Origin: a virus
Strand: one strand, 5' to 3'
Virus record (IMG/VR): IMGVR_UViG_3300043788_000049
Location: 23,272-87,271 of that record
Length of the DNA: 64,000 nt
Under the pieces are notes generated by a model. The model was not told the DNA's origin and ran no database searches. It saw only the letters and a list, made by a program, of their open reading frames with translations. The position numbers were made by a program, and so were the translations under genes. Shown here in pieces: positions 2,957-54,997 of this stretch (within the stretch, counting starts at the first letter, position 1; each line of letters begins with the position of its first letter).

Positions 2957-3343
2957 TCATTTCCCTTTGGAGTCGGTCAGCGCGGCGCGGGCGAGCAGCA
3001 CCATGCTGCCAGTGCGGAGATTAGGATTTGAAGCGATGTTCTCCAGCGCCTCCCGCAATCGCGCGAGTTCGGATTCGGCTTCCTCTCGCCGTCGGCTTGC
3101 GCTAGCCGCCCATATTCGCCAATGCAGCACATCATCCTCGAAAGGATGCGCGGTTAGGTTCAACCCCGCGACTGTATCTTGCGCCTCCTGCAGCGCGGCG
3201 ATGAGACGGCGGATACTTTTGGCATTGCGAACAATCCACGCGCCGAGATTTTCATAATCGGCTTCGCTGCTAAACTTCGCCGTCTGGTCTATGCGACTAA
3301 GCAATTCCCCAATCAGCGCTTCAATCTCGCTCGGATCGCTCAT
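2957..3343 (-). CDS. Hypothetical coiled-coil phage protein
   Basis: GGAG RBS; ELARLREALENIA...ARAAL motif typical of phage accessory proteins. Confidence 0.65.
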   Translation of the reverse strand: MSDPSEIEALIGELLSRIDQTAKFSSEADYENLGAWIVRNAKSIRRLIAALQEAQDTVAGLNLTAHPFEDDVLHWRIWAASASRRREEAESELARLREALENIASNPNLRTGSMVLLARAALTDSKGK

Positions 3344-3352
3344 TCGGTTCTC

Positions 3353-3562
3353 CTACGATGGGGAGGAAGGAGTGTTTGCTATTTTCTTCTTCGCCTCTTC
3401 AAGGCAATGAATGGCGACTTGGATGAGGTAGGCATTCCGCACATCTGTTGGGTTCTCCCACCACAGCTTTAGATTGCCCTCGGCTTCCCTGACGTTTTTC
3501 TGGGCAGTGTCGCCCAGAGGAAGAACAAATAATCCCATCTCCCTCTCCCTTTCTCTGCTCAA
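3353..3562 (-). CDS. Hypothetical protein
   Basis: Fits the tightly packed minus-strand array. Confidence 0.45.
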   Translation of the reverse strand: MSREREREMGLFVLPLGDTAQKNVREAEGNLKLWWENPTDVRNAYLIQVAIHCLEEAKKKIANTPSSPS

Positions 3563-3780
3563 TCAGGTGAACGCGGAACGAAGGGAGTAGTCATGCCATC
3601 GGCACTGGGGGATGTTGGGAAAAGTGGCGCACTTCCGTCTCTGATGTGTTTTATGAAGCGCTGTTGGACCTCATTGGTGGCAGTATCCCAATCCCATTCG
3701 ATGCCGGTCCAAGCACGAGATGTTTCCTCGTAAAGAGCCTTGGCGGCTTTAACGATCGTCGTTGCTGAAATAGCGCTCAT
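3559..3780 (-). CDS. Hypothetical protein
   Basis: GTAGGAGAACCG RBS, near-identical to the one before 3343. Confidence 0.55.
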   Translation of the reverse strand: MSAISATTIVKAAKALYEETSRAWTGIEWDWDTATNEVQQRFIKHIRDGSAPLFPTSPSADGMTTPFVPRSPD

Positions 3781-3815
3781 TCACGGTTCTCCTACGGCGC
3801 CCAAACGACACGCGG

Positions 3816-4022
3816 TCATGCCGGCCGCTTTGCGGCTTCGACAATCGACTGGACCATGAGGGCGTCGCGGATGATGGTCGCTACGGCCTCCTGGCGGGTT
3901 TTATAGCCAAGGCGGGCGATGAGGCGATCGAACAGGGCGAGGTCCGGCCCCTCGATCGTGACGATGGCCTGGATCCCGATTACCGGGCGCTTGTCGTCTT
4001 CGAGGAGATCATCTTCGGTCAA
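3816..4022 (-). CDS. Small ribbon-helix-helix-like DNA-binding protein
   Basis: VTIEGPDLALFDRLIARLGYKTRQEAVATIIRDAL resembles CopG/NikR RHH. Confidence 0.5.
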   Translation of the reverse strand: MTEDDLLEDDKRPVIGIQAIVTIEGPDLALFDRLIARLGYKTRQEAVATIIRDALMVQSIVEAAKRPA

Positions 4023-4246
4023 AGGCCAGCCTCTTCTGCTGTGAGGATTCGATTATCGCTGCGCCGGTCGAGTTCTTTGGCCGCAGCCCTGAATAATCCG
4101 GCCAAGCGGGCCGCGGGGATAAGATTATCGTCGTCGCGCTGGGTTGCAATGCGAAAGGCGTTGCCGTCGTCCAACTCGACGGTCAGATAAACCCAGACCC
4201 CGTGCTCGTCGCCGCCGTAGTTGATGGCGGTGGATTTGACTTTCAT
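4019..4246 (-). CDS. Hypothetical protein
   Basis: Start MKVKST overlaps the upstream stop (ATGA). Confidence 0.5.
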   Translation of the reverse strand: MKVKSTAINYGGDEHGVWVYLTVELDDGNAFRIATQRDDDNLIPAARLAGLFRAAAKELDRRSDNRILTAEEAGL

Positions 4247-4476
4247 TTGAGCGCCTCGTCGATCATCGCTTGCCAGAACCCTTCTGCAACCTCTGCCGGT
4301 TCTCCGATGATTTCTCCAACGCCGCATGCCGCTACCATCGCCTTGGTCGGCTCGCGCATCGCGGCGATGGCGTCACGCGCGACGGTGCGATGCCAAATCT
4401 TCTGGCGATGATCTAACTCGTCCCATGCATCGCGACCGGCTATCGCTATTGCCACGCGCTCAACCATCTCGCTCAT
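4243..4476 (-). CDS. Hypothetical phage protein (ERVAxAI...AIAAMREPTxAM...WQAMIDEAL type)
   Basis: Motif seen in many alphaproteobacterial phage proteins; similar segment in 8933..9409. Confidence 0.6.
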   Translation of the reverse strand: MSEMVERVAIAIAGRDAWDELDHRQKIWHRTVARDAIAAMREPTKAMVAACGVGEIIGEPAEVAEGFWQAMIDEALK

Positions 4477-4953
4477 TTCTTTCTCCACCAGTCCTCGATC
4501 CTGACGTCCTCGATACGGTGTCTCCGGGCATGCCGTTCGGCCCGGACTGATTCGGCGATCATGAAGGGCGCGATCATCAGCATCGGCAGCAGCCAAATCG
4601 GGATGGTGACAATCGCCAGGACGACGAGGATGATGGTGTGGCTGAGCGGCTCGTCCATTTTATTTCCCTCTCCCAATCCACCACCACAAAAAACAATATC
4701 CGCCCACGAATAGGATCGTGCCGAAGATGAACACAAGGCCGCCCTCATAGGAGCCCTCATTCATCCCAATTAACCGGCTGGCCGCGAGATTTTTGGGCGC
4801 GGGCGCATAAATCTAAGGTCAGAATATCCTTGCGGATTTGCGCGCCCTGCGCCCAGGCCAGCTCCCGCCACGAGTTGCGGTCTGTGACCATCCAGCCATC
4901 GACGATGAATAGAGCCGCCATGATCAGCACGTAGACGGCGACGCAGACCTTGC

Positions 4954-5184
4954 TCATGCCGGCATCCTCTCGATGAACATCTTGTTGATTTCGAACGATC
5001 GCTTTTTCCCCTCCCACCGCACGATCACCGTCTGGGTCGGGTAGTGATCCTTGATCGGGTCGGCCACCACGGTCCCGAAGTCCCCATAGAGGTCGAGCCG
5101 GAGCGAACTTTGCCCCAGGTGCGAGAGGCGGACGATTTCGCCTCTGCGGTAGCGATCGCCGGAGAGATAGGTCACGTCGCTCAT
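4954..5184 (-). CDS. Hypothetical SH3/KOW-like small protein
   Basis: RRGEIVRL...GTVV...VIVRWEG pattern. Confidence 0.45.
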   Translation of the reverse strand: MSDVTYLSGDRYRRGEIVRLSHLGQSSLRLDLYGDFGTVVADPIKDHYPTQTVIVRWEGKKRSFEINKMFIERMPA

Positions 5185-5477
5185 TTGTCCGACTTCTTGT
5201 CTTCTGACGCTGGTTTCTCGGCCAGATGCTCTAGAATCCGCTCAGCTAAGGCTTTCGCATCGGATGGGATCATGACGACAGAGGCACGGACGCCTACTTC
5301 CCTGCCAATATATTGGTCGAAGAAAAATATCCGAATGAGCCCAGGATAGACCATGAAGGCGGCGCTATTGCAGAAAACTGACGGAAAATCTCCATGCTTG
5401 GAAATTGTAATGTCCGCCTCCTGGCTCATGGATGGCCCTCGTTTAATCGCCTCAAATAATTCCTCGATGCGGCTCAT
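5181..5477 (-). CDS. Hypothetical protein (DUF3467-like pattern)
   Basis: SVFCNSA..LIRIFFFDQ..VRASVVMIPSDAKALAERI. Confidence 0.5.
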   Translation of the reverse strand: MSRIEELFEAIKRGPSMSQEADITISKHGDFPSVFCNSAAFMVYPGLIRIFFFDQYIGREVGVRASVVMIPSDAKALAERILEHLAEKPASEDKKSDK

Positions 5478-5776
5478 GGCTTTTTCACCCCCATGACGAG
5501 TTGCGCCCAGGCGCGGCCGTTGAGCGGGCACTGGTGATTGACTTCCGGCGGCTCGGGCTCCGGGAAGGTCGCCCCCACCGTCGCGCGGCTTCGTCGGTGC
5601 TCCGCGTAGCGCGCTTTATATTCCGGGCAATCTCTGGCGGTCATGCCGTCGAAAAGCTGGGCCTTGCACTCGCCGCAGGTCGCCAGCGGCTTGAGGGCCG
5701 GCAATTCGGGCAAGGGCGGCGGCACGGCGGCGGCGGTGACTTTGGGCTTGCGTGGCTTGCGGGGGGTCATCACCAA
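5474..5776 (-). CDS. Hypothetical zinc-finger-like protein
   Basis: CGEC...CP...CPL with basic N-terminus. Confidence 0.5.
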   Translation of the reverse strand: MVMTPRKPRKPKVTAAAVPPPLPELPALKPLATCGECKAQLFDGMTARDCPEYKARYAEHRRSRATVGATFPEPEPPEVNHQCPLNGRAWAQLVMGVKKP

Positions 5777-6240
5777 TTTCCTTCGCCGACGGCCTGACGG
5801 GCGATGAAGATAGCTTGGTCCAGCCGATCGATCGATGAGTGCGCCGGAACGGGATTGTTCTCACGCCATTCCTTGTGCGTCATAAACCGCGCGATTTTCT
5901 TGAGCGCGTCTTCCCAGACCTTCGCGACCCCTGGCTCGGTAAGCCGTGGTTTTGGGGCCTCCACCTTGGCGCAGGCGGAGTTGAGCCGTGCGCGCTGGGT
6001 TGGCGAAATGACCCCGTGGCCCTCGGACACCGCATAAACCTCGCCGCAAATATCGAGCAGTTCGCGGATGGCCAATTCGGAGGGGATCGTTTTTACCGGA
6101 TTGGCGAGCAAGGCCAAGTTCCGGGAGATCGAGGTCAAGACAGTCAGTTGGGTGATCTGAACCAATCCCCTCAAATCCTCTTTAGGAAATGCCCTGCCGA
6201 CTTCCCGAATCAGCGCGTTCACAGCCTCAAGATCGCTCAT
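5770..6240 (-). CDS. Hypothetical protein
   Basis: 156-aa ORF with GGAGG RBS. Confidence 0.55.
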   Translation of the reverse strand: MSDLEAVNALIREVGRAFPKEDLRGLVQITQLTVLTSISRNLALLANPVKTIPSELAIRELLDICGEVYAVSEGHGVISPTQRARLNSACAKVEAPKPRLTEPGVAKVWEDALKKIARFMTHKEWRENNPVPAHSSIDRLDQAIFIARQAVGEGNW

Positions 6241-8932: not shown

Positions 8933-9409
8933 GTGATGGCTGAGACGAGAGAAGCGGTTCTGGAGGCTTCCAATGGCGATGGTGGCTATGATGAGGAAGT
9001 CATTGTGGCCAAGGATGCGGCGAATGCGGCTGGGTTTGACCATGTAGGCGCATATTGCGGGACGAAGATGATGGCTGCGGCTATTGCGGCGCTGGATGCA
9101 CATCGAAAGGCTAAGCGTGAACCAAAGGCTTCTGAGGCCAGCGTAGCGATGAGGGTTGGAAGCGCGGTTAAGGCCGAATGGGAGCGGTTCATGATGGGTC
9201 CGGACGGCGATGATGCTGTCAAAGAGACCCGAGCGCTTGGTCGCGCGGCGTTGGCGGCGCTTCGCGACCCGAATCACGAGATGATCGAGGTTGGCCGAAT
9301 GGAGTTGGGCACCTGGCAGGATATCCCAGGGTCCGGATTGACGGTGGCGCGCGAGAAGATGCGGCGAAGATGGAATGCAATGGTCGAATGGGCGATAGCC
9401 AGAGGGTGA
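8933..9409 (+). CDS. Hypothetical protein
   Basis: GAGG RBS; AALAALRDPNHEMIEVG..WNAMVE like 4243..4476. Confidence 0.6.
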   Translation: MMAETREAVLEASNGDGGYDEEVIVAKDAANAAGFDHVGAYCGTKMMAAAIAALDAHRKAKREPKASEASVAMRVGSAVKAEWERFMMGPDGDDAVKETRALGRAALAALRDPNHEMIEVGRMELGTWQDIPGSGLTVAREKMRRRWNAMVEWAIARG

Positions 9410-9413
9410 TGAG

Positions 9414-9665
9414 TTACGCCCTCTTGGCGCGTAGCTCATCAAGGACGTCGAAGAGATTGGGGGGATCGGTGAATGATTGCAAAGTCCAGACCCCGAATCT
9501 ATTTAATCGCCACGTCCATCCAGCCTGATGACCATTGAGCGCGTTTAGCCAAAGCACGCCACCGCGCCGGCGAAGCTGGAAATCAATATTCTTTGGGCAG
9601 ATAGAGAGGGGTCCTAGCTCATCCTCCGACAGATCGCCAACGCCTGGAAGCTTCTCAATGCTCAT
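9414..9665 (-). CDS. Small protein with C-terminal PNLFD-ELR tag (member 1)
   Basis: Ends DPPNLFDVLDELRAKRA. Confidence 0.75.
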   Translation of the reverse strand: MSIEKLPGVGDLSEDELGPLSICPKNIDFQLRRRGGVLWLNALNGHQAGWTWRLNRFGVWTLQSFTDPPNLFDVLDELRAKRA

Positions 9666-9933
9666 GGGCCCGCAATTCCTCAATGATGTCAAATAGATTG
9701 GGGTTTGGGTCCAACCACACCGGACAAAGCGTGCCGTCGCACCCGTAACGCCACTCGTTCCCCAAAAATATGCGCTGCCATGTAGAGTCTGGATACTTAG
9801 AGCGATCTTCCGCCATCAGAGGGCCAAGGATGCTCGGATAAGCCAGCCAATCGCCATCTTCCGGCAGCGCATTGACCGCTTCCAGCTCGATCGCCGTCAG
9901 CCGCCGCGCGCCTTCTCGAATCATGACGCTCAT
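9655..9933 (-). CDS. Small protein with C-terminal PNLFD-ELR tag (member 2)
   Basis: Ends PNPNLFDIIEELRAHEH. Confidence 0.75.
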   Translation of the reverse strand: MSVMIREGARRLTAIELEAVNALPEDGDWLAYPSILGPLMAEDRSKYPDSTWQRIFLGNEWRYGCDGTLCPVWLDPNPNLFDIIEELRAHEH

Positions 9934-10208
9934 TTGCGCAACTCGTCCAAGATGTCGAAAAGGTTGGGGCCGACCATCGCCCGGAACTCCTCATCGGGGC
10001 TTATCTGTTGCCACTGATACGAGTGGCCGCTCGAACTCACGTTGAGGGCGCAGACGACACTATTCTGGGTATTGCGCAGCCAAATCTTGCCGTCAGCGGC
10101 ACGCTCTACTGTCCAGTTCACCTTCTTATCCAGCGCCCGCAGAGCCTCTAATTCAATCCGCGTTGTGATGAATCTTCCGTCATTTGGTTCAAGTGTGAGG
10201 ACCGTCAT
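9930..10208 (-). CDS. Small protein with C-terminal PNLFD-ELR tag (member 3)
   Basis: Ends VGPNLFDILDELRK; ATGA-coupled to the TylF gene. Confidence 0.75.
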   Translation of the reverse strand: MTVLTLEPNDGRFITTRIELEALRALDKKVNWTVERAADGKIWLRNTQNSVVCALNVSSSGHSYQWQQISPDEEFRAMVGPNLFDILDELRK

Positions 10209-10915
10209 TTGCGTAACCAGCGAACCGAGAAGTCCACATGCGCCAGATAGGGCCTGATCCTCAGCGTTGAGAAGAACTCGTTGCAAGCGTCCCGACATCC
10301 TTTGAGGCACCAGTCATCGATAATCACGAAGCCGCCGGGCACGACCAGATCCCATAGGTGGTCGAACGCGACCTTGTAGCTGTCGTAGAGGTCGCCATCG
10401 AGCCGCAGGATTGCGATCGGGCCAACGTAATCGACCGGAACTGTGTGCTGGAACCAGCCCTTGTGGATGTGCAGATCGTCCAGCGGATAGCCGATTTGCG
10501 CCATCAGCCCGATCACATCGCCCAATTTAGCATCGCCGAGCGCGCCAGCGGCTTCGAGCGCGCCATCGCAGCGCCCAGGCGGCAATTTCTGCGTTTCGCA
10601 CGCCCAGATTATGTCGTCCTTGTCGAACCGAGGCCACGGAATGCCCTCGAAACTGTCAAAAGCGTGCAAAGCCCGGCGGCGAGAGCCAAACTTGAGATTG
10701 GCGAGCGCCATCGCGCCCAGAGCTCCGCCCCGCCAACAGCCCAATTCAACAAATGCGCCCGGTATCGCTTCCTCCTCGCAATAGCGGACCTGATCAATTA
10801 ATGTCGCAATCCCGTCATACGTGACCATGGTGTGAAGCTTGATGGCCTCGATGATCGGCCACATGACCGTGTGCTCGTCGCGATAGCCGCGCGACATGAA
10901 CTGCGAGTGGATCAT
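10205..10915 (-). CDS. TylF/MycF/NovP-family sugar O-methyltransferase
   Basis: PGAFVELGCWRGG, FDSFEGIP, KGWFQHT, ILRLDGDLYDS, PGGFVIIDDW. Confidence 0.9.
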   Translation of the reverse strand: MIHSQFMSRGYRDEHTVMWPIIEAIKLHTMVTYDGIATLIDQVRYCEEEAIPGAFVELGCWRGGALGAMALANLKFGSRRRALHAFDSFEGIPWPRFDKDDIIWACETQKLPPGRCDGALEAAGALGDAKLGDVIGLMAQIGYPLDDLHIHKGWFQHTVPVDYVGPIAILRLDGDLYDSYKVAFDHLWDLVVPGGFVIIDDWCLKGCRDACNEFFSTLRIRPYLAHVDFSVRWLRK

Positions 10916-11032
10916 CGCGTCCCCGATCGAGATAGCCTGCGATGAGAAACATTGGTCCGATGGGCCAACCCCTGGGTAAATCATCATGCTTGATCCGGCG
11001 AGTTCCGTTGGTTAAGAGGCAGTTTATCACAG

Positions 11033-11236
11033 ATGGAGACGCGAGTGGAAACCCCGAGCGACAAATTGGACCGAGCGAAGCGCGATAAGCTGCTCGATAT
11101 TATCCGGCGAGTGATCGCCAACCCGGAGAACGCCAAGGAAGCCGCGGACGAGATCGCGCAAGACTGGTTTCCGATGATCAAGGTTGATGCCCGCGGCGCG
11201 ATACACTTTCGTGTGGGCTCGGGCCGCAAACGATAG
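11033..11236 (+). CDS. Hypothetical protein
   Basis: 67-aa ORF heading a short plus-strand cassette. Confidence 0.5.
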   Translation: METRVETPSDKLDRAKRDKLLDIIRRVIANPENAKEAADEIAQDWFPMIKVDARGAIHFRVGSGRKR

Positions 11237-11245
11237 GAGCGACCA

Positions 11246-11425
11246 ATGAAGCTGATCCTCGCGTTGTTCGTGGCCCTCGGCCTCTCGGGATGCGCCACGG
11301 GCAACTATCCGAGCCAAGACTATAGCTGGGAGCACCACGAGGACCATGGATGGGACCACCCAGACCATCATGGCGACTGGCGTCATCCGAATCACCGCCG
11401 GCTCAAACATCAGGCAAAGCCATGA
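11246..11425 (+). CDS. Small His-rich lipoprotein (not in ORF track)
   Basis: MKLILALFVALGLSGC lipobox, then EHHEDHGWDHPDHHGDWRH; AGGAG RBS. Confidence 0.7.
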   Translation: MKLILALFVALGLSGCATGNYPSQDYSWEHHEDHGWDHPDHHGDWRHPNHRRLKHQAKP

Positions 11426-11631
11426 GCATCATTTCCAGCGTCGATCTGGCCCGCAAGCTCGTCATCATGGCGTCCGGCGAGGAAGTCCCGATCACCAATA
11501 TGTTCGATCGGCACGGCGAGGAAGTGACCGACCCGCGCCGCGCCGCGACCGTCGTTGCCGGGCCATGTGAGGCGGGATGGATTGCCACTGTCCTTAGCGA
11601 GGAGGAGCGGGAGGAGTTGGAGCCAGCGTAG
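11422..11631 (+). CDS. Hypothetical phage protein
   Basis: VPITNMFDRHGEEVTDP..VAGP..GW; ATGA-coupled. Confidence 0.6.
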   Translation: MSIISSVDLARKLVIMASGEEVPITNMFDRHGEEVTDPRRAATVVAGPCEAGWIATVLSEEEREELEPA

Positions 11632-11902
11632 CGCGCAATTCCTCGATCACGTCAATGATGTTGGGGCCGGGCTCCTCCCACGCCTCAATGATCGGCCATT
11701 CCTCCAACTCGGGTTGGCGCAGATCGCGCGGCAGCCACCTGCCGTTGCTCATCAGAGCCCACACTCCTTGGATATTTCGTAGCATGAGCCCGTGGGCGTG
11801 CCGTGAGAGCACAAAATTAAGCGGAAGGTCTGAGCGCACTCGCTCGACCGCCCGTTCCTCAGCCTCACTCATCGGGAGGCAGTTAGGGTCATATCGGATC
11901 AT
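11594..11902 (-). CDS. Small protein with C-terminal PNLFD-ELR-like tag (member 4)
   Basis: EPGPNIIDVIEELRA near the C-terminus. Confidence 0.75.
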   Translation of the reverse strand: MIRYDPNCLPMSEAEERAVERVRSDLPLNFVLSRHAHGLMLRNIQGVWALMSNGRWLPRDLRQPELEEWPIIEAWEEPGPNIIDVIEELRATLAPTPPAPPR

Positions 11903-12147
11903 CGCCGCGCCCGCAGTTCGTCGAGGAGATCGAAGAGGTTGGGGGCGTCTACGGATAAGACGATCCAATGCCCGTCGAGCCCCGTTTCCTTTTCCCATGC
12001 CATTCTCGGGAAATGGCCATTTTCATCAACTGCGACGAAGGTGGCGAACTCGTAGCGAAACGTGCATATCCACTTGCCACCGCGAGGCAAAAGATCCGCG
12101 CCCGTGAAGATGCGCCCATCGGGCGTAAAGACCGGACTGCTAGCCAT
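11899..12147 (-). CDS. Small protein with C-terminal PNLFD-ELR tag (member 5)
   Basis: Ends DAPNLFDLLDELRARR. Confidence 0.75.
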   Translation of the reverse strand: MASSPVFTPDGRIFTGADLLPRGGKWICTFRYEFATFVAVDENGHFPRMAWEKETGLDGHWIVLSVDAPNLFDLLDELRARR

Positions 12148-12382
12148 CCCGCTTGGCCTCCAGCGCGCGTAGCTCCTCGATCACGTCCACAATGTCAGGG
12201 CCGGGAGGGGGCGGGTTCTTCCACGCATCATACTGCGCGGTCCAATCGATCCGGAGCGGATAGAGCCAATGAAGCACGAAGCCGAGAAGAAGCCCGAGCC
12301 CGAGGATCACGATTGAACCCATCATCACGATCGCCAGAAAGCCCAGGGCGATATTCACGACCATGTCGGGATCAATCATCAC
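12140..12382 (-). CDS. Small membrane protein with C-terminal tag (member 6)
   Basis: TM segment, then PPGPDIVDVIEELRALE. Confidence 0.75.
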   Translation of the reverse strand: MMIDPDMVVNIALGFLAIVMMGSIVILGLGLLLGFVLHWLYPLRIDWTAQYDAWKNPPPPGPDIVDVIEELRALEAKRDG

Positions 12383-13536
12383 GCACTCGGGTCCAGATCG
12401 AGCAACTTCCCGAACGGCGGCTTGTTCGAATAGCCTCCATATCGCACCCAGAGCACCGGACAGCCGGGTTCCTGGCCGAAGCTATGGCAGCACAGGTCGG
12501 TCAGATAAACGACGCCAGAGGCCTTGGGAGCGTGTTCTGCGGTCCATCGGAAGGCCGGAGCGAAATCTGTCCCCCCTCCAGGCTTCGGACACACGTTGAT
12601 GATGTCGCCGGCCTCGAACTCCAACGTCTCTTGGACCGCGCAATCGCAGAACCCGACAGTCAGCTTCTCGCACGCGCTCTCATCGAGGAAGCCCTGTAGC
12701 TCCGCCATGATCGCGGCCAGGGAGCGCTCGTCCATCGAGCCCGACGTGTCGACCCAAGCGACGATATGCGAGGGCGCGATCGAGCCCGACCCTGGAAGGA
12801 TTATCCCGTCGCCATAGTCGCGGCGCGACGGGCGCGTCCAATCGGTGTCAACGATGCGTGATTCGTCCGCCCAATCCCGGAATAGCTCCTTCCAGGTGAT
12901 CGTGGGCTTGTCCAAATCGGCCATCATCTTGACCAGGGGCGCGGGAATCGAGCCGACGTTCTTGGCGCGCGCCACCGCCATCGCTTGTCGCACCTGCACC
13001 TGGGCGCGGCGCTCGGCCTCCTTCATTTCCGAGGAGGCATAGGGCGGCGCAGCGTCCATCACCCCGCCGCACTTGCCGGGGTCGCTGCCATCGCCCCCCT
13101 TGACCTTCTTCGCGTTCTTGACCAGCAGGTTGTAGACCTGCTCGGTCGACATGCCCTCGTATTTCTGGTCGTAAAGGTGCGGGTTCGGCAGCTTGATGCC
13201 AGCGCGCCGCAGATCGGCGTTAATGACGAAATCGCCGGCAATGTTCCAGATGTCGCCCTGGCGATCGCCGCGGCGCGTGTGGTGGAGATAGCAAACGTGC
13301 ATCACTTCGTGCGCAAGGACAGCTTCAAGCTCCTCCATCTTCAGCTTCAGGACGAACGGCGCCCAATAGAACAGGCGCTTGCCATCCGTCGCCATCGTGT
13401 CGATGCCAGAGCCCTCGGGGCCCGGATGGACCCCCATGTGCATGATCAAGACGGCGAAGAATGGCTGGCTCATCATCAGCCGCGCCCGTGCCTTCAGGAT
13501 CTTCTTCTCAGCTTCGATCTGGTCTGGAGTCAGCAT
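12379..13536 (-). CDS. DUF2201-type metallopeptidase-like (HExxH) plus vWA-like domain protein
   Basis: TMATDG, LAHEVMH, WNIAGDFVIN; MIDAS DTSGSM, GGGTDF, YLTDL. Confidence 0.9.
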   Translation of the reverse strand: MLTPDQIEAEKKILKARARLMMSQPFFAVLIMHMGVHPGPEGSGIDTMATDGKRLFYWAPFVLKLKMEELEAVLAHEVMHVCYLHHTRRGDRQGDIWNIAGDFVINADLRRAGIKLPNPHLYDQKYEGMSTEQVYNLLVKNAKKVKGGDGSDPGKCGGVMDAAPPYASSEMKEAERRAQVQVRQAMAVARAKNVGSIPAPLVKMMADLDKPTITWKELFRDWADESRIVDTDWTRPSRRDYGDGIILPGSGSIAPSHIVAWVDTSGSMDERSLAAIMAELQGFLDESACEKLTVGFCDCAVQETLEFEAGDIINVCPKPGGGTDFAPAFRWTAEHAPKASGVVYLTDLCCHSFGQEPGCPVLWVRYGGYSNKPPFGKLLDLDPSA

Positions 13537-13967
13537 CAGAAATCTCCATCGGCGATCTGAGCGCAAGGGATTCCAAGCTTGCGCCATACATCCACGACGC
13601 GCTTCCTGTCCTCGAAAATCATGATCGGCTCGAACCCCGCCTCGCGCGCCTCAGCCAGCAACTCGACCTTGACCACGCTATCGTCTCGATAGTCGCCAGC
13701 CTTGCGCATGAAAAGGCCATGGATAAGCACTCCGTGCTTGGTCAGCCATTCCACTGTGAGTTGCCGGCACTCATCAGAGCGCCCCGAGAGGCACACGACT
13801 GGCGCAGGGAGCATCTGCGCCAGATCGATCATGTGAGGGATAGGCGCGTCGCCGTCGCACGCAGCGAAGAAGGCCCGCCAATCCTTTGGCTTCTTCTGGA
13901 TGTGATGCAGCCGATGTGACGGGTCCGAAAGCGTCCCATCGATGTCGAAAAACCATGCCCGCTTCAT
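13536..13967 (-). CDS. HAD-superfamily phosphatase (T4 PNKP phosphatase-like)
   Basis: FDIDGTL, SGR, LFMR..D.R.D..VK, FEDR. Confidence 0.9.
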   Translation of the reverse strand: MKRAWFFDIDGTLSDPSHRLHHIQKKPKDWRAFFAACDGDAPIPHMIDLAQMLPAPVVCLSGRSDECRQLTVEWLTKHGVLIHGLFMRKAGDYRDDSVVKVELLAEAREAGFEPIMIFEDRKRVVDVWRKLGIPCAQIADGDF

Positions 13968-13978
13968 TTTCTGCCCCC

Positions 13979-14974
13979 CTAGATCGAGATGTCCTGGTTC
14001 CGCGTCGCCCACTCGGTGTAGGCCTTGGTGGTCTTGAGCGAGGGATCGCGCTTGACCGCATCCGTGACCAGCGTCATCTCGAAGTCCTTGGTCAACCGGC
14101 CGCCATAGATGAGGATCGCTTCGAAATTTCCCCGATCCGCCTTGCGGGCCAGAGCGCCAACCACCGCAAATTGGGTGTTTGGAGCCGATGGAACCGCAGC
14201 CTTCCTCGGATGCGCGATGATCTCGGCCAAGGGCGGTAAGGTTTTATACGTCTGAATGAACGCCTCCAGTTCCGACGCCGCGCCCTCGCCAACTAATCCC
14301 TCGATCAGCTTTTGCCGAATATCGTCATCGGCATGGATGACCTTGGCGACCTGGACCCAGGACCGCGGCGACGGGAACGCCCGAACCTCGATGTTCTGCG
14401 GGACATTGTGGAGCAAGGCCGGCCGATAGCGCAGGAAGGCGCAGATGAGCGGTTCGATCAGCGCCTTGTTGGCCCAGGACTGCCAAGCGTCCATGTCCTC
14501 CTCGACGTCGATCCAGGCAAAGCGATTCGCCAAGCCAACCGGCATCTTGTTGACGCCGGAGCGGTCGATCTGCCGATTGCCCGCGGCGACGATCATTGTC
14601 CGGGGAGGCAATTTATGCAGGCCGACAGCCCGATTCCACACCAGTTGGAAAAATGCCGTTTGCACAGAAACGCTTCCCTGAACTAATTCGTCGATGAACA
14701 GCATCGTCGGCCTGTCGCCGTAGCTCTCCAGCTCCGTCAGCCACTTCGGCTTGGCCCAATCGACGCCCGCATCCGCCCGGAAGGGCAGGCCACGAACGTC
14801 AACTGATTCGAGCGTCGTCGCGCGCTCCTCGACCAGCACAGCGCCCAGCTCATCGGCGACCTGATAGACGCCCTCCGACTTGCCGATGCCGTTCTTGCCG
14901 GAAATCATCACCGACATCCCAGCCGCGAGATAGGCTTTCAGGCACTTCTTAGCCATCGTGACGTTCATAGGCAC
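13979..14974 (-). CDS. MoxR-like AAA+ ATPase
   Basis: Walker A GKNGIGKS, DVRGLP, Walker B LFIDE, AAGNR, LANRF, FPSPRSW. Confidence 0.9.
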   Translation of the reverse strand: MPMNVTMAKKCLKAYLAAGMSVMISGKNGIGKSEGVYQVADELGAVLVEERATTLESVDVRGLPFRADAGVDWAKPKWLTELESYGDRPTMLFIDELVQGSVSVQTAFFQLVWNRAVGLHKLPPRTMIVAAGNRQIDRSGVNKMPVGLANRFAWIDVEEDMDAWQSWANKALIEPLICAFLRYRPALLHNVPQNIEVRAFPSPRSWVQVAKVIHADDDIRQKLIEGLVGEGAASELEAFIQTYKTLPPLAEIIAHPRKAAVPSAPNTQFAVVGALARKADRGNFEAILIYGGRLTKDFEMTLVTDAVKRDPSLKTTKAYTEWATRNQDISI

Positions 14975-15037
14975 AACCCCTTTCGTCGAAGCCTAATCGC
15001 TTCGGACAGCCGGCGCGAGGCCGGCTCCCCGCTGCGG

Positions 15038-15624: not shown

Positions 15625-15736
15625 AGGAGGACACCATGAGAATCACACCGATCGAATTAGCTCTGATCCTCGCCCTGGTGGCGCTGGCTGTCACCGTCTC
15701 TATCGCAACAACCGCAGGGGTGTGAGAATATTTGGC

Positions 15737-16015
15737 ATGAACCCCCACGCCCAGGCAGTCGAGGCGATCATGGAGGCGGTGGCGGAATATGCGCCGCCGC
15801 TGGATAAGCCTGTGGGGTTTCTCCATGAATTTCTCGACCGCGCGGCGTTATTGGACTTGGACGGAGCCGAAAACTATTTGCGGTGGTTGCTGAACTTGCC
15901 GACGGACACGCCCGGCATTCTCGTGCAACACGGATTCCGGTGGGAACGGGAGCCTAATAAGCGGCGCAGAGAGATCCTCGTGAACTGGCTCCGGCGCGTA
16001 AGGTTCATGAAATGA
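15737..16015 (+). CDS. Small protein with N-terminal HAxxVxAIL tag (member A)
   Basis: MNPHAQAVEAIMEAVAEY. Confidence 0.75.
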   Translation: MNPHAQAVEAIMEAVAEYAPPLDKPVGFLHEFLDRAALLDLDGAENYLRWLLNLPTDTPGILVQHGFRWEREPNKRRREILVNWLRRVRFMK

Positions 16016-16557
16016 CCAAGCGCCACGTCCACCACATCGACGGCAACCCCAACAACCACGACCTCGCCAATCTGAGGTTGGTAAAGGCGAGCGTTGGCGT
16101 GTCGCCGAACTTGAACCCGGTGCCGCTTGGGAAGCTCTACGGCCGCTCCCCCGGCTCGCTCCCTGCCGACTTCGAAGAAGCGATGGACCGGATTAATTCA
16201 TTCAACCGTCGCTTCAAAACCCGCCTCGTGAAGGTGACGCCCCCGCCGGCTAACAAGGAACATGCGGCGGAGGTCCAGAGCATTCTGGAGACGGTGTGCT
16301 CGGTGGACTTCGCGCCATCGCCCCAAGGATTGCCAGGGATGCCCACTGAGGCTGATTTCGCCTATGCAGCCAGTATGGACAGCGCGGGCCGCGCCCTTGG
16401 GCATGTAGGCCGTCTTGCTGCCAATCTCTGCGGGTATTCAGAGCAAGTATTCGATTGGACTGTTGGCGAGGGACGCGCTTGGCTAGGGGCTACTCGCTCC
16501 TTCCGCCGCGATTGGCTCCGAGGCAAGGTCGAGCGCGCCTTGAGGGCCCGCCGATGA
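16012..16557 (+). CDS. HNH-motif remnant fused to an internally tagged domain (member B)
   Basis: HVHHIDGNPNNHDLANLRLV at the N-terminus; internal EHAAEVQSILETV. Confidence 0.7.
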   Translation: MTKRHVHHIDGNPNNHDLANLRLVKASVGVSPNLNPVPLGKLYGRSPGSLPADFEEAMDRINSFNRRFKTRLVKVTPPPANKEHAAEVQSILETVCSVDFAPSPQGLPGMPTEADFAYAASMDSAGRALGHVGRLAANLCGYSEQVFDWTVGEGRAWLGATRSFRRDWLRGKVERALRARR

Positions 16558-16853
16558 CCCACGCCGCCGAGGTCGAGCGCATCCTGGCCCATGCCGAGGA
16601 GTATCTGGCTCCGCCGCAGCGGGTTTTTGATGCAGACTGGCTGACGGAGTGGTGCAAGGGCATGAGCGGTTTTTCGGCAGGGATCGCCGCCATATCCTGC
16701 GTGAGTTATTTCAAGCTAGATGAGCCAGAGGCGATGGTCGCCGACTTGCTTAACCGCCTTGGCTGGAGGGTGGCCGGAGCTACCGCGCGCGTCACAATCA
16801 TTCGCAATGCCTTGAGCATCTTTGGCGTCCGGACGAAGCAGGCTCGCCCATGA
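16554..16853 (+). CDS. Small protein with N-terminal tag (member C)
   Basis: MTHAAEVERILAHAEEY. Confidence 0.75.
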   Translation: MTHAAEVERILAHAEEYLAPPQRVFDADWLTEWCKGMSGFSAGIAAISCVSYFKLDEPEAMVADLLNRLGWRVAGATARVTIIRNALSIFGVRTKQARP

Positions 16854-17149
16854 CCAACGACGCCCATAGCGCCCAGGTGGAGGCGATACTGGAGCAAATC
16901 GGGGCGTTTGCCTTCACCCCAGGAACCAACCTGCGGGTCTGCGTAGGCCAAATCGTTCCAGGTGATGTGATCGTTTGGGACACATGCCAAAGGATCGTGA
17001 GAAAAGTCCGGCATACCGGCGGCCAATATATCGAAGTCTCAATGAGAGGCGTTGACGGTAAGGTGTTCGACGTCGATTGGGACGTCACTCATCACGTCGA
17101 AATCCTCACCCCGCCATTGCCGGAATGTATCGCAAGAGGCTTGCTATGA
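16850..17149 (+). CDS. Small protein with N-terminal tag and SH3-like body (member D)
   Basis: MTNDAHSAQVEAILEQIGAF; IVPGDVI..RIV..V. Confidence 0.75.
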   Translation: MTNDAHSAQVEAILEQIGAFAFTPGTNLRVCVGQIVPGDVIVWDTCQRIVRKVRHTGGQYIEVSMRGVDGKVFDVDWDVTHHVEILTPPLPECIARGLL

Positions 17150-17373
17150 ACCCCGCCGATCACAAAGCCGCCGTCGAGGCGATCGAGGCAAAGGTCGCGG
17201 AGTATGAGGGGCCAGTGCCTGCCCACGATCGCTGGACTGTCGATTTGGGTAGCACAACCATCACGCCACTCTTGAGCGGCAACTTTAACGTGCTGAGTGG
17301 GTATTACCTTGTCGCAACGCCGGAAGAGGCAGCAAAAAACCAACGAGCCTTTTGGGAGAACCTAGACCTATGA
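17146..17373 (+). CDS. Small protein with N-terminal tag (member E)
   Basis: MNPADHKAAVEAIEAKVAEY. Confidence 0.75.
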   Translation: MNPADHKAAVEAIEAKVAEYEGPVPAHDRWTVDLGSTTITPLLSGNFNVLSGYYLVATPEEAAKNQRAFWENLDL

Positions 17374-17618
17374 CCGACGCCGTGACCATCAAGTCCTTCT
17401 CCGAACTCGCCAAGGAATGGCGGACCCGCAACCGCTACTCCCGCCCCCAGCTCTCCGAGCTGACGGGATACTCCCCCTCGGCCATCCAGGACATCGAGGA
17501 GGCGATCTACCGCTCCCCGCCCCATCCGGTCAGCCCGGAGGTCATGCGGCGCTACCGGCTGATCTGCGCCGCGGTGGAGCACAAACTGACGGATTGGGAA
17601 TTTACCGATCGGGGATGA
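17370..17618 (+). CDS. XRE/Cro-type HTH regulator
   Basis: KEWRTRNRYSRPQLSELTGYSPSAIQDIE. Confidence 0.8.
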   Translation: MTDAVTIKSFSELAKEWRTRNRYSRPQLSELTGYSPSAIQDIEEAIYRSPPHPVSPEVMRRYRLICAAVEHKLTDWEFTDRG

Positions 17619-17619
17619 A

Positions 17620-17892
17620 ATGACCCACGCCTCACAGGTCCAGGCCATCCTCGATCGCGTCGCGGAGTGGGAGACGCCGCATGCCGCGGTGATCGAAGCA
17701 GCCTTGGAGCAAGCCGCGCACATGGCTCCGGGCGAAGCCTTACGCTGGCTCAACGCTCGCTTCGGGACGCCAATCCCGCAGTTTTGGGTCCAGCACGAGG
17801 TAGGAACGTGGGGATCGATAATAAAGATTGAGGAGCGCATCGTTTGGCTGCGGCGAAATTGCCTCAGCCCGACGCTAGGCTCCGGGTCTTAA
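17620..17892 (+). CDS. Small protein with N-terminal tag (member F; paralog of A)
   Basis: [17 protein letters not shown]; LRWL..P...VQH...WLRR shared with member A. Confidence 0.72.
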
Positions 17893-37204: not shown

Positions 37205-38482
37205 TTACCCCCCCCAGATTGTTGCATCGGCGGTATAGTGGAGGAAGGCCGATGAGATGCTGGTGGTCGATCCATCGAAGAGAAATGAGGCTGTCGAGAT
37301 ATTGAATGGCGGCTGCGTGGCCGTGACGCCGGCCGTAAAGGCCGAACTGGTTTGCAGAATGACCGAAACCTTGTTGACCGTCCCAGCACTATCCCAATAG
37401 CTGACCGTGGGGACATTGCGCATCAGGGTCGGGAACATCACGAGGCCGGCATTGACGCCTGCGTTATTGGTGAGGGCCGGCCCTGCGATATTCAGCGTGG
37501 TGGCGGTCCCGGCGGAGCTTCCATTCGCATAGCTCTGCGCCCAGAAGCGGTAATTCCACTGAATGTCGCTGGCCGGATCGCGAACCTCTGGAGTGGGCGG
37601 GCTCGCATTGAGGCCGATGGTTGCGCCAGGGGTGACGCGCGCATCGAAGCCGGCGTTGAGAGTGAACGTCTTGCCGGAAGTCGAGAAGTTATTGCCAAGA
37701 TCCACAATGAACTCGTAGCCGGTGGTAGCTCCTGAATTGGCGGCAAAGGTGTAGGCTTCCGTGCAGCTCGTGTTGTTCAAGCACGCTTGCAGGTTGACCG
37801 AGGAAAGATCGGTTGTGGAGCCCGCCCAAGCTCCCCCTGCCGTAACCCCGCCATCCTGACCGCCTGTGGCGTATTTCGTCGTTAGGGTCGGCGTGATGGT
37901 CGCGCCGGAATTATTAAACCAGGGAAGTTGAAAGGTTACGGTCTGCCCCGCAAACTTTGCCGCCGTGTAGCTTTCGACAACGAACCGCAGTTTCACATCG
38001 GTTACGCTCGCTGCCCCGGTGACTTTGAGAGCGTTGTAGCCAAGAGAGCCAACCGGACCAGCAGACTGCGTCCAGGTCACGGCGGCGCCAGATGCGACGA
38101 CAAAGACACCCTCGGCGGTCCAATCCGCATTCCCCACGACAGTCGATGTCGTCCCGCTGGTTCCGTGGAACCATGCGGTTAGGGTGGCGTTCCGCAGAAC
38201 GTTGGTGAAGCCCTCGGTGTTGCCGGCGATCACCGCATTGCCGATGTTGTTGCAGCCGAAGGCTGACATCGAAGCCGTCCAGGTCAAGGCTTGAGCAGCG
38301 CCGTGGCAATCCGTCATCGTGAAGAAATGCTGGATGCCGGATTGGTCAATGCCGCCTGAAGGTTGCGAACCCGCAGTCCCCGACGATTGAAGGCGGTTGA
38401 TGTAATCCTGCGCCGCCGCCGGCTCGGCCAGCAAGGCGAATGGGGAGCAAGCCAGAAGGAGGCCGAGGCGGTGAGGCTTCAT
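37205..38482 (-). CDS. Tail fibre-like/carbohydrate-binding virion protein
   Basis: Thr/Gly-rich beta protein with fibre-type C-terminus (PTPEVR...YRFW...FPTLMRNVPTV); signal-like N-terminus. Confidence 0.55.
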   Translation of the reverse strand: MKPHRLGLLLACSPFALLAEPAAAQDYINRLQSSGTAGSQPSGGIDQSGIQHFFTMTDCHGAAQALTWTASMSAFGCNNIGNAVIAGNTEGFTNVLRNATLTAWFHGTSGTTSTVVGNADWTAEGVFVVASGAAVTWTQSAGPVGSLGYNALKVTGAASVTDVKLRFVVESYTAAKFAGQTVTFQLPWFNNSGATITPTLTTKYATGGQDGGVTAGGAWAGSTTDLSSVNLQACLNNTSCTEAYTFAANSGATTGYEFIVDLGNNFSTSGKTFTLNAGFDARVTPGATIGLNASPPTPEVRDPASDIQWNYRFWAQSYANGSSAGTATTLNIAGPALTNNAGVNAGLVMFPTLMRNVPTVSYWDSAGTVNKVSVILQTSSAFTAGVTATQPPFNISTASFLFDGSTTSISSAFLHYTADATIWGG

Positions 38483-39099
38483 CGGTTTGTCTGCGCAGTT
38501 GATTGGATCGTCGCGATTTGCGCCGAGGTCAGCCCAAGAGAGCTTTGGACCAAGGCCCAGATAGAGCCGCCGACCGGCCAGAACGCATCGCTATAGGCAA
38601 TGTTCTGAGAGTTGGTCGTGTCCGGCGGCACGGCGGCCTCGAAGGTTTCGAGCGTATAGCCCTGCGTCACGATCGCCCGCTTGGCTTGCCCCGAGGTAAT
38701 GGGCAGCGTGTTGATCGTCGGGGCAGCAGCAGTGAACTGGATGAAATTGATTGGTGTCACGCCAACGATGATCGGGTTAGGCGTCGCGACCGCGAAGATC
38801 GCGTTGGCGTAGAGCAGGCCATTAGTGATAAGAGTTTGTGTGCCCTGGACGACGTTGGAATCGCCATTAAAATCAATTGCTAACGTCCATGCACCAAGCT
38901 GCGCATTGTAAATTCCGTTCGTGGTCGCCGATGTATTTGCCCGGACGAGGATGCGGTCGCCGGCCAAAGTCTGATAACCATCGATCACGAGCAGACCGAT
39001 CATTCCATTCGTGCGGTCCATTGTCGTGGCGGCCTGACAGGGCGCTTTGATCGCCACCTGATCGGGAATGCCGCCGAGAATATCGAGGGAGGTCGACAA
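38479..39099 (-). CDS. Tail-associated protein
   Basis: KAPCQAATT..IDG..LAGDRILV..N....NGIY motif of fibre proteins. Confidence 0.65.
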   Translation of the reverse strand: MSTSLDILGGIPDQVAIKAPCQAATTMDRTNGMIGLLVIDGYQTLAGDRILVRANTSATTNGIYNAQLGAWTLAIDFNGDSNVVQGTQTLITNGLLYANAIFAVATPNPIIVGVTPINFIQFTAAAPTINTLPITSGQAKRAIVTQGYTLETFEAAVPPDTTNSQNIAYSDAFWPVGGSIWALVQSSLGLTSAQIATIQSTAQTNR

Positions 39100-39160: not shown

Positions 39161-39301
39161 CTACCGCCCCCGCGTATTGCGGGTGCCCGGTGGCGGCTTC
39201 GTGATCTTGACCACCTGGGGAGCCGAGCGGACCACGCGCCCGCTGGCGTCGCGGCGCACGATGACGACCTTGCCGGGGCGATGGCTGTAGATCGCCTTCA
39301 C
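39161..39301 (-). CDS. Small basic protein with RDxxG motif
   Basis: GTGA-coupled; VIVRRDASGRVV. Confidence 0.45.
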   Translation of the reverse strand: MKAIYSHRPGKVVIVRRDASGRVVRSAPQVVKITKPPPGTRNTRGR

Positions 39302-39528
39302 TTCTTCCCCCGCTCGGCCTCGATCCGGTGGACCTCGGCGATCATGTCGAAGATGTCGGGCTCCGGCGGGTCCTCCTCTTCGTCGAGCAGGCCGATATCC
39401 CGCAGATAGTCGTGGCTGACATAGGTGATGCCGCCCGCCCATGGGTGGTTAAGAGCGTGTCCGCCTGCCGGTGTTTCGAAGGCGTCGACGAGCAAGCCTT
39501 GCCAGTTCGGAGGATCGCCAATGGTCAT
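39298..39528 (-). CDS. Small protein with WAGGITYV motif and a degenerate C-terminal tag
   Basis: PWAGGITYVSHDY; PEPDIFDMIAEVHR. Confidence 0.6.
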   Translation of the reverse strand: MTIGDPPNWQGLLVDAFETPAGGHALNHPWAGGITYVSHDYLRDIGLLDEEEDPPEPDIFDMIAEVHRIEAERGKK

Positions 39529-43418: not shown

Positions 43419-43682
43419 TTATAGCTCGATTAGGAAGAGAGGCGTCAAGGCGCGACCAGTGCGCTCATCATATTCATGATCGACCCACGTAATGCCGCCG
43501 GCCCAAGTGTTCACACCGCCTTGGATGACCTCCCCGATCTGGGCATAATCGGGCCAAGTGATGGCTGGCGCAGGGAACCACGATTGCCCGGATGGTCGTA
43601 TGGCAGAGCTTTGAGGTCGCGTGCATCCGACCAGAGCCACAGGAGCGCCTAAGAGGACGGCAAAAAATCTACGTCTATCCAT
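43419..43682 (-). CDS. Small Tat/lipoprotein-signal protein with GGITWVDHEYDER motif
   Basis: MDRRRFF twin-arginine, LVGC lipobox. Confidence 0.55.
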   Translation of the reverse strand: MDRRRFFAVLLGAPVALVGCTRPQSSAIRPSGQSWFPAPAITWPDYAQIGEVIQGGVNTWAGGITWVDHEYDERTGRALTPLFLIEL

Positions 43683-46600: not shown

Positions 46601-47025
46601 TTTGTTTTGCTGCCGCCGGTCAGGGGTGGGGTCTGTGGGGCAGGACCGGAAATCGGTGGAACCAGCCGCTTAGCCTGGAGAGGTTGCTGATTGCCAATGT
46701 GCCGGGGGAAGTCCGCAGCGGTGGCGGCATCCCAAGTGCTCAGGATCGAATAGAGATTATGCGTGGTGGCGCACGGCGCCCCCGGCCCCGAAATTGGCGG
46801 GGTTAACCGCTTCGCTTGGAGCGGCTGTGCGGCCCCTATGTGCGGCGGAAAGTCCGCGGCGGTTGCGGCGGCCCAGATCGCCATCGTTGCGACGAGCGCG
46901 GCCTGGAGACTACGGAGGGGCGGATTGTTAACCGCCGGCCCCGCCTGTGGCGGGACGAGCTTTTTCTGCTCTAGCGGCTGCTTGTTGCCAACATTAGGCT
47001 GGGGCGGATCGTAATAAATGCCCAC
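43675..47025 (-). CDS. 1116-aa proline-rich repeat protein (virion region)
   Basis: About 16 WxPPDPAPQxGPK units plus other repeat types. Confidence 0.8.
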   Translation of the reverse strand: MGIYYDPPQPNVGNKQPLEQKKLVPPQAGPAVNNPPLRSLQAALVATMAIWAAATAADFPPHIGAAQPLQAKRLTPPISGPGAPCATTHNLYSILSTWDAATAADFPRHIGNQQPLQAKRLVPPISGPAPQTPPLTGGSKTNLTTILAAWTPVDQPAQTQRFSIIAPVAQPPPPGQQSWPAYAWFAQAPTYVLLGPLGIPIAAPTNPPLVGLGRLPAILGVWDAAAAANFNLSLDEQPYAPNLLIPPSGPTPQNPPVIGGEPEHLTATQVAWLPPDPAPQWGPKLTPSGPAAQNPPLIDRWAGQFQATLNDWLPPDPAPQWGPKVTPSGPTPQAPPVIGGLPALPSILATWTPPDPAPQYGPKLTSSAPTPPPLVGGARALPALLAAWMPPDPAPQWGPKFTPSGPTPQAPPLAGRGTLASVLSTWTPSDPAPQFGPKIVPQPTAAAYLSPSNPWLQTVLATWAAPDPLPQGGPKLTASGPAASQVIPPGEQQWPAYAWFAQAPAYVVLGPNLTASAPPAPQLSANSWLPIVLASWTPADPAPQWGPKLTPSGPAPQRPPIIGANQQSVYSWFAQPALGIDLYGPSAPNPQSPPVIGGSLAALQTILAAWIPPDPLPQLGTRQFTPSAPPKLSVSNVGQFAAIIASWAPPDPAPQFGPKLTASGPATSQVIPPGEQQWPAFAWFAQDPAYVLLGPSGLPVSAPPTPVLAANPWLPGVLTTWGSPDPAPQSGPKLTSSGPAAQNPPLIGARIPIAVLNSWLPADPLPQLGTKVFTPSAPQPTPVGSRVPDAILNAWLPPDPLPQFGPKLVPQANPPLIGGSAQFQAVLTTWLPPEPAPQLGTRVFTPSGISNPPLIGGSGQLPAILAAWIPPDPAPQWGVKWFTPSAPPLQPVSGAGQLAAFLTAWLPPDPAPIVGPKFTPSGPTPQNPPLIGGRLSLPTVLATWTPPDPMFEIATLGIPQSAPPPPPPAPPTPPIVLPPVVPPIVLEIPPSGGGGPKYPLKPGEGGPEFFRHAHGGFDFEDFPSSVIEAREIAPRGTVHSPGVKVVYKARVIAITAIDRSSEVGVHSIKMRYRLAFDAIPPTVQGKGPMVRNHTQDIMDILDRIMPLIKSRFGDNG

Positions 47026-54590: not shown

Positions 54591-54997
54591 AGCCTGAAGA
54601 TCGTCTTACCTGATTCCCAGCCGATATGAACGTCACCCGCCTGTGGCGAAAAGGGAAATTTGCCGCTACCGAGGGTGTCAATATGGGCGATCAGCCGGCT
54701 CGTGGCTCGGGAGCCGGTATCCTGGTAGACGACGATGAAATCGACGGAGGCCGCATCGACCGCCTCGATGACGACGCTATTGGCGCAGGCGACGCCGTTC
54801 TCCCCCGTCTTGCCCGTCAACACGACGCTCTTGGACACCACCGCCGCGCCGAGGTCGGCCAGAAAGCGATCCTTCTGGATATTGGCCTTGCGCTGCTTGC
54901 CATCGCAGAGGACCGCGCAGATTTTGTCCTCCAGCCACTTAATCTGGCCGCAGAGGAAGGCTTCACGCCCTTTCTCAAAGAGACTGTTCGCCATCAT
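54587..54997 (-). CDS. Minor tail protein-like
   Basis: ANSLFEKGREAFL.G.I.W..D; LTGKT..GV..A; LIA.ID; P.GDV.I.W. Confidence 0.65.
   Translation of the reverse strand: MMANSLFEKGREAFLCGQIKWLEDKICAVLCDGKQRKANIQKDRFLADLGAAVVSKSVVLTGKTGENGVACANSVVIEAVDAASVDFIVVYQDTGSRATSRLIAHIDTLGSGKFPFSPQAGDVHIGWESGKTIFRL

Follow-up and report, generated by a model that had tools for sequence, protein, structure and literature searches.

Why do six small proteins of one phage, some of them with quite different bodies, all end in the same short helix? The question arises from a stretch of 64,000 nucleotides (here called the window), which corresponds to positions 23272-87271 of the IMG/VR record IMGVR_UViG_3300043788_000049, a complete 87,271-bp genome of an uncultured soil virus with direct terminal repeats. 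A preliminary description, made from the letters alone, had pointed to six open reading frames (ORFs) in two triplets with a common C-terminal ending, and had taken this tag for a docking module. We find that the tag stays constant while the bodies in front of it are swapped between close relatives. That it is a constant docking helix which links variable bodies to one shared candidate partner has, in our judgement, roughly an even chance. The six tagged genes, and a seventh one that carries a possible further copy, are:

9414-9665, minus strand: A1, probable family member with a weak body signal; tag at 9429-9461
9655-9933, minus strand: A2, soluble family member; tag at 9670-9702
9930-10208, minus strand: A3, soluble family member; tag at 9936-9968
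11594-11902, minus strand: B1, soluble family member; tag at 11633-11665, followed by a Pro-rich tail
11899-12147, minus strand: B2, soluble family member; tag at 11911-11943
12140-12382, minus strand: B3, about 34 hydrophobic N-terminal residues (predicted membrane anchor) and a Pro-rich linker; tag at 12167-12199
39298-39528, minus strand: C7, small gene after that of a 908-aa virion protein; degenerate tag-like C-terminal helix at 39328-39360

All six ORFs exist and have the endings described before. The strict motif P-[ND]-[LI]-[FIV]-D-[VIL]-[LI]-[DE]-E-L-R has six matches across all 87,271 bp of the genome and none in 100 triplet-shuffled genomes, and in each of the six ORFs it is located 1-14 residues ahead of the stop. 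For A1 the 83-aa form starting with the ATG at 9665 is most likely; a TTG at 9692 is a possible start, too. The helix comprises about ten residues, has a net charge of -2 in every copy and is usually followed by a short basic end. Its Asp and Glu are nearly invariant in the alignment.

Such a segment could be conserved as DNA or RNA, for instance as a recombination site, a coupling signal or a promoter, the encoded peptide being incidental. The position of the tags, 3-45 nt ahead of the start of the next gene, would suit an element of this kind. However, the DNA copies of the tag are mutually only 58-76% identical within the genome. Counted over all pairs of tags, there are 62 synonymous differences between codons and 51 residue replacements, the latter mostly among L, I and V or between D and E. 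As the copies differ mainly at synonymous sites, it is the peptide that is under selection and not a DNA repeat, just as the preliminary description had argued. Furthermore, a scan for promoters and terminators gave nothing above shuffles and no such sites at the tags, and a distant relative, the phage G001 introduced below, preserves the pattern of residues in a sequence that differs. Even if the conserved junctions reported in the next paragraphs are counted in its favour, we regard a nucleic-acid element as very improbable.

Evidence for the tag as a unit of its own comes from a close relative. Between the two triplets of the window lie the following genes, part of which can also be compared:

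10205-10987, minus strand: TylF-type O-methyltransferase (PF05711, E 3.3e-38), the stop of which overlaps the start of A3
11033-11631, plus strand: opposite-strand block of three small genes, one of them lipoprotein-like, with a corresponding signal (…L-S-G-C) and a His/Asp/Trp-rich repeat

Scans of metagenomes (89 stretches) and genomes (78) with a degenerate DNA pattern of the tag yielded essentially chance singletons, except for L063 with three tag copies and L024 with one; in IMG/VR the only match of this pattern, present in three contigs, was internal and unrelated. L063 and L024 are short contigs from one soil metagenome and belong to a close relative of the window phage, with flanks 82-86% identical at the nucleotide level. 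The neighbouring genes of L063 encode proteins with 82% (TylF) or, for two small plus-strand genes, 84% and 94% identity. At the A3 and A2 positions, 12 of 12 and 14 of 15 tag residues agree and nearly the same codons are used, whereas the bodies at these two positions are only 36% and 29% identical and cannot be aligned by blastn. The C-terminus of B1 is kept in L063 as well.

All bodies were compared with the tag removed, by Smith-Waterman z scores against shuffles and by leave-one-out profiles run against about 4,900 background ORFs. The L063 gene at the A3 position combines the N-terminus and the tag of A3 with an A2-type body (z 19.4 to A2 vs. 2.8 to A3). Thus, bodies and tags assort independently. 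A misassembly at the tags is unlikely, since these do not share long exact words. Between the window and L063 the best conserved DNA is found at the junctions, that is the tag together with the start of the next gene, which are 92-96% identical next to bodies that do not align. These junctions look like the points at which bodies are exchanged, and they may be points of recombination, which can be counted in favour of a nucleic-acid element.

Are the bodies themselves unrelated, as had been claimed? This holds for B3, C7 and the protein r2 of a relative, for which no similarity to the body of any member was detected (mean z about 0; 0.03 for B3). In contrast, the tag-less leave-one-out profiles ranked the left-out body ahead of the background for A2 (E 2.5e-8), A3 (1.1e-4), B1 (3e-4) and B2 (3.6e-3); for A1 the profile was weak (E 0.81), with z 2.1-2.2 to A3 and B1. 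Pairwise scores reached z 5.0-5.4 for A2-A3 and A3-B2 and z 2.1-2.5 for A1-A3, A1-B1 and A3-B1. Of all body pairs among the 13 soluble members that three phages provide, 35% have z>2, where a few percent would be expected if they were unrelated. Profiles of the bodies also reached across phages, to r5 of a relative (E 2e-3), to B2 (E 0.014, rank 2) and to several more within the top 20. This required tag-anchored alignments; a body-only profile from the six G001 bodies alone gave no match. The alignment across both phages shows a common L-P motif, an invariant Trp44 and a nearly invariant Trp51. Judged by these similarities, A2, A3, B1, B2 and, on a weak signal, A1 share one orphan fold as diverged paralogues. 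The tag is thus carried by this paralogue family and by at least two or three bodies unrelated to it, and the number of dissimilar body types is at least three: the soluble Trp-rich one, the membrane-anchored B3, and C7 or r2.

This result brings up the explanation that the preliminary description itself had named as fatal to its proposal, an ordinary paralogue family consisting of tandem duplicates of one domain, in which the helix is merely the most constrained element and the term tag reads too much into it. The recovery of A2, A3, B1 and B2 by tag-less profiles, the high share of body pairs with z>2, the common Trp and L-P positions and the identical order of secondary structure elements in two predicted models (see below) all fit such a family. 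However, a uniform constraint on one domain does not match bodies of 29-36% identity between a tag of about 100% and neighbours of 82-94%. One body in L063 has changed tags, the helix also occurs on B3, r2 and C7, where there is no body similarity, and in both models a linker with very low confidence parts it from the sheet. For these proteins as a group we consider the purely paralogous explanation improbable.

The predicted structures in question were obtained with AlphaFold2 for A3 (model m6a362a88a086) and r5, two proteins from different phages, with predicted local distance difference test (pLDDT) values of 71.5 and 77.9, respectively. Both show the same layout: a short N-terminal helix, a four-strand meander, seven residues with pLDDT<50 and a confident C-terminal helix, in A3 at residues 17-24, 32-69, 74-80 and 83-91. 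In nearly all members the ten residues preceding the C-terminal helix include 1-6 Pro or Gly. According to these models, the soluble bodies would have a fold of a short helix and a four-strand Trp-rich sheet, and the tag forms a distinct helix behind a flexible linker, in agreement with its earlier description as a separate module. Fold searches, including Foldseek and VIA-align, gave no significant match, and the ESM Atlas no usable one. The best Foldseek hit was the weak one to Borrelia Pur-alpha (E 0.3, prob 0.2), a four-strand-plus-helix unit that dimerises through helices; the best one of VIA-align was an unrelated immunity protein (Z 4.2).

The helix might serve the proteins among themselves. 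In this explanation the members self- or hetero-assemble as a helical bundle that displays a mixture of variable heads, with no outside partner. Hydrophobic positions 1, 2, 4, 5 and 8 form a broad face, as is usual for helices packed inside a bundle and not for those lying on a surface, and six translationally coupled members in both the window phage and G001 would fit a stoichiometric assembly. The mode of dimerisation of Pur-alpha points in the same direction, but this fold match is not significant. Furthermore, a helix of just 2.5-3 turns is short for a stable coiled coil, and its net charge of -2 per copy would put like charges face to face. Altogether, assembly through the helix appears unlikely to us, although it deserves to be kept in mind.

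If there is an outside partner, the genomic context of the array becomes informative. Upstream of the B triplet three genes run in the same direction:

13979-14974, minus strand: MoxR-type AAA+ ATPase (phrog_1297 ATPase, E 5.7e-79), opening the co-directional block; Walker A G-K-N-G-I-G-K-S and Walker B F-I-D-E-L are found in its translation
13536-14012, minus strand: HAD-family phosphatase of the PNKP type (PF25109, E 9e-30)
12379-13587, minus strand: protein with a DUF2201_N metallopeptidase-like part (PF13203, E 3.4e-37) and a DUF2201 vWA-like part (PF09967, E 2.6e-22), in short DUF2201

In DUF2201 the H-E-x-x-H motif (H93, E94, H97) and the residues D280, S282, S284, T340 and D364 of a metal ion-dependent adhesion site (MIDAS) are invariant across 16 homologues. 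The complete order on the minus strand is MoxR, HAD phosphatase, DUF2201, B3, B2, B1, then the opposite-strand block, then TylF, A3, A2 and A1. Starts and stops overlap by 4, 8 or 11 nt at DUF2201/B3, B3/B2 and B2/B1 as well as at TylF/A3, A3/A2 and A2/A1, and the translational coupling assumed from the outset is thereby substantiated.

The distant relative G001 was reached through DUF2201. It is a complete 98,782-bp phage (L173; a twin is present in L174) with a DUF2201 58% and a MoxR 57% identical to those of the window. Behind DUF2201, and overlapping it by 4 nt, comes a translationally coupled series of six small genes, the products of which all end in a related helix, typically W-D-A-I-[DE]-E-L-R-A-[ST]-E-A-R-R, in which D, E, L and R are conserved. 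A search with the W-D-A-I pattern retrieved only G001 and its twin, plus two chance matches. Position and gene number of the array, six, are common to both phages. In G001 the six genes are contiguous; TylF and the block at 11033-11631 are not found there, and the HAD phosphatase gene is missing as well, so that DUF2201 comes directly after MoxR in L173. In the window phage, TylF and the opposite-strand block have inserted into the array and split it into two triplets. We do not claim that the tags evolved in concert with a partner, since the likeness of tags within a genome is equally well accounted for by lineage-specific birth and death of genes.

MoxR and DUF2201 are our favoured candidate partners of the tag, since two diverged phages both have the array in translational coupling with them; it is gene linkage alone that singles them out. 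The MIDAS sites of vWA and integrin I domains are known to bind acidic ligand residues, and the tag contains a nearly invariant Asp and Glu. For the other candidate, NorQD (PMC13036017) provides a solved case of a C-terminus that docks on a MoxR ring. Co-folding of DUF2201 with A3 resulted in a score of 0.01 against a mark of 0.32, which counts neither way.

A second array is located on the other side of MoxR and in divergent orientation to it (15722-17892, plus strand). It encodes six proteins with an N-terminal helix of the pattern H-[AS]-x-x-V-[EQ]-A-I-[LM]-E-x-x-x-E-[YW]-x-x-P. At least five copies of this N-terminal tag are present at the corresponding place in G001 (L173 around 3222-6222, minus strand); hence, both tagged arrays flank the MoxR/DUF2201 core in two diverged phages. 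Compared with the MoxR of the window, the G001 one (L173 8867-9940, plus strand) has a 28-residue insertion at residues ~69-96, between R-G-L-P-F and V-x-W-A-K-P, and its segment H-A-D-K-V-Q-S-I-L-D-Q-M-E-V-Y-A-G-P fits the N-terminal motif. This hints at a functional tie between the N-terminal helix and the ATPase.

One may picture MoxR and DUF2201 of this phage clade as a remodelling or proteolysis hub that would be served by the C-tagged proteins as exchangeable receptors or cargo. With its body, each of them would capture a distinct host protein, for example one of a defence system, and the helix would plug into the hub, perhaps via the vWA MIDAS or the MoxR ring; the N-tagged array might have a similar role. 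This picture is improbable and we put it forward as a speculation.

The seventh gene directs attention to the virion instead. C7 contains P-D-I-F-D-M-I-A-E-V-H-R, near its C-terminus and behind a linker rich in Pro and acidic residues. That a degenerate further copy lies outside the array had been stated before, and such a sequence is indeed present at 39298-39528, but it reached only E=30 with the tag profile and no counterpart was found in G001. C7 is thus a possible tag copy. It directly follows the gene of a 908-aa virion structural protein (phrog_684, E 4e-85; 39525-42251, minus strand), which shares 43% identity with the homologue in G001. The gene at 38479-39099 (minus strand) encodes a 206-aa protein that is fibre- or decoration-like. 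G001 has the 908-aa and 206-aa genes in the same order, with C7 inserted between them only in the window phage. Also in the structural module, a 1116-aa protein without a PHROG match (43675-47025, minus strand) ends in Q-D-I-M-D-I-L-D-R-I-M-P-L-I, a relative of the tag with two mismatches, about 15 residues from the stop.

The helix could therefore be a virion-targeting signal, by which its carriers would enter the capsid or attach to an internal protein of the virion and then be ejected into the host, similar to the internal proteins of T4. The location of C7 in the structural module directly after the phrog_684 protein and the similar helix of the 1116-aa protein speak for it, and so does the fact that the diverse internal proteins of T-even phages share only their capsid-targeting sequence (PMC3012670). 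However, the six genes are found in a MoxR/replication-side module and are coupled to non-structural genes. C7, besides its weak tag match, does not occur in G001, and the T4 signal is N-terminal and cleaved whereas the tag here is C-terminal. We judge virion targeting to be quite improbable.

How widespread is this family? Searches of Pfam-A and PHROGs gave no family at E<0.04 for the six proteins, C7 or eight proteins of relatives. A profile of the six found nothing but the six themselves among 1.84 billion representative proteins, and a word-indexed homologue search with A3 only A3. The tagged family is thus absent from collections of 5.8 billion and 1.84 billion proteins, the window's own proteins aside. 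Against cultured phages the region 9000-15000 of the window had no blastn match, and the best identity for the DUF2201 protein in tblastn was only 32%. Scraps of the phage genome are present in one soil metagenome DNA run according to a sequencing-run search; no RNA run was listed, which has no bearing on expression. Apart from the loci discussed here, the right end of the window is dominated by a 2993-aa ORF (54994-63975, minus strand).

Taken together, the six genes are a hypervariable array encoding small proteins. Each protein is built from a variable body, followed by a flexible, Pro-rich linker and by a C-terminal helix that stays constant. We propose that the helix brings every member to one shared partner, and that the bodies lend the members different specificities or activities, probably driven by an arms race. 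Selection on the peptide keeps the helix while bodies diverge or are swapped between the conserved junctions, and it is this retention that lets us see a docking element in it. The detached helix on a flexible linker, the constancy of the tag against the turnover of bodies, its presence on unrelated bodies and a lineage-specific motif common to the members of each phage indicate a module with a job that is independent of the body. Docking on one shared partner is the simplest job of this kind; it may well be the true one, and may just as well not be.

Several observations weigh against this proposal. Most of the bodies are paralogous, so part of the sharing of the tag is simple common descent. 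In the window genome the A triplet is coupled to the methyltransferase and not to DUF2201. The preliminary description had named amphipathic encapsulation peptides as an analogy; the helix, however, is not markedly amphipathic and does not exceed shuffles of itself (hydrophobic moment 0.43-0.47 vs. 0.37), and amphipathicity was dropped as an argument. The family is carried by only three phage lineages. As for co-occurrence with the MoxR/DUF2201 pair, the array follows the pair in the window phage and in G001, but among IMG/VR loci of DUF2201 homologues, 80 more distant phage loci with at most 46% identity were without such an array. Therefore, the pair does not need the array.

MoxR/vWA pairs are widespread in phages, and the literature mentioning the DUF2201 type gives no function for it. 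The tag can be used as a bait for its partner, and the variable bodies are candidate host-directed effectors. Should the partner be the ATPase or the peptidase, the array would represent a new type of phage-encoded targeting system; should it not, the family would be a lineage-restricted orphan of modest importance. Irrespective of this, the locus shows a constant module and variable cassettes that assort independently in a hypervariable region of a phage.

Several known systems are built on similar principles. The internal proteins of T-even phages are diverse, fast-evolving small proteins from a plastic locus that have one short constant peptide in common (PMC3012670), and constant junctions with variable middles are seen there as in the array of the window. 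The capsid-targeting sequence of T4 is an N-terminal one; it guides the products of late genes to the scaffolding core, and the prohead protease cleaves it off. A leader of this type, about ten residues with a prohead-protease site, is not seen here, and the N-termini are not shared among the six. The tag differs from it as a C-terminal helix on mostly paralogous bodies, encoded with MoxR/DUF2201 instead of head genes and without sequence similarity. Given a C-terminal tag and six genes that belong to the MoxR module rather than to a structural one, there is little to support the analogy to capsid targeting.

Similar in design are the docking tails of AAA+ partners. The C-terminal XB peptide of SspB docks on the N-domain of ClpX, and both this peptide and the tail of NorD, short C-terminal peptides behind a flexible linker like the tag, tether a protein to an AAA+ machine; the low pLDDT in two models and the Pro/Gly-rich composition show such a linker here. 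NorQD consists of a MoxR-class ATPase and a vWA partner, a combination that is likewise encoded immediately upstream of the window array. However, the docking C-terminus of NorQD is on the vWA protein itself, whereas here it would be on six separate small proteins, and the contact is proposed.

Variable target-binding bodies with a constant C-terminal helical motif that fits into one machine are known from viral multigene families of substrate receptors, such as the poxvirus ankyrin/PRANC F-box-like and BC-box proteins. These plug into eukaryotic cullin ligases, whereas a ubiquitin-like system is not present here, and the likeness to the array is one of architecture only. If the hub described above were true, the array would be a phage analogue of such viral F-box/PRANC receptor families. 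The cargo peptides of encapsulins and bacterial microcompartments (BMC) resemble the tag as short terminal peptides or helices that sit on linkers across unrelated cargo, but their motif differs, and shell genes for encapsulins (PF04454) and BMC (PF00936) are absent from the complete 87-kb genome, with controls responding. The array thus resembles, yet belongs to none of, the T4 capsid-targeting, AAA+ tail, receptor-family and cargo-peptide systems. It stands apart by being coupled to MoxR/DUF2201, by exchanging bodies while the tags stay fixed and by having an N-tagged second array across the ATPase.

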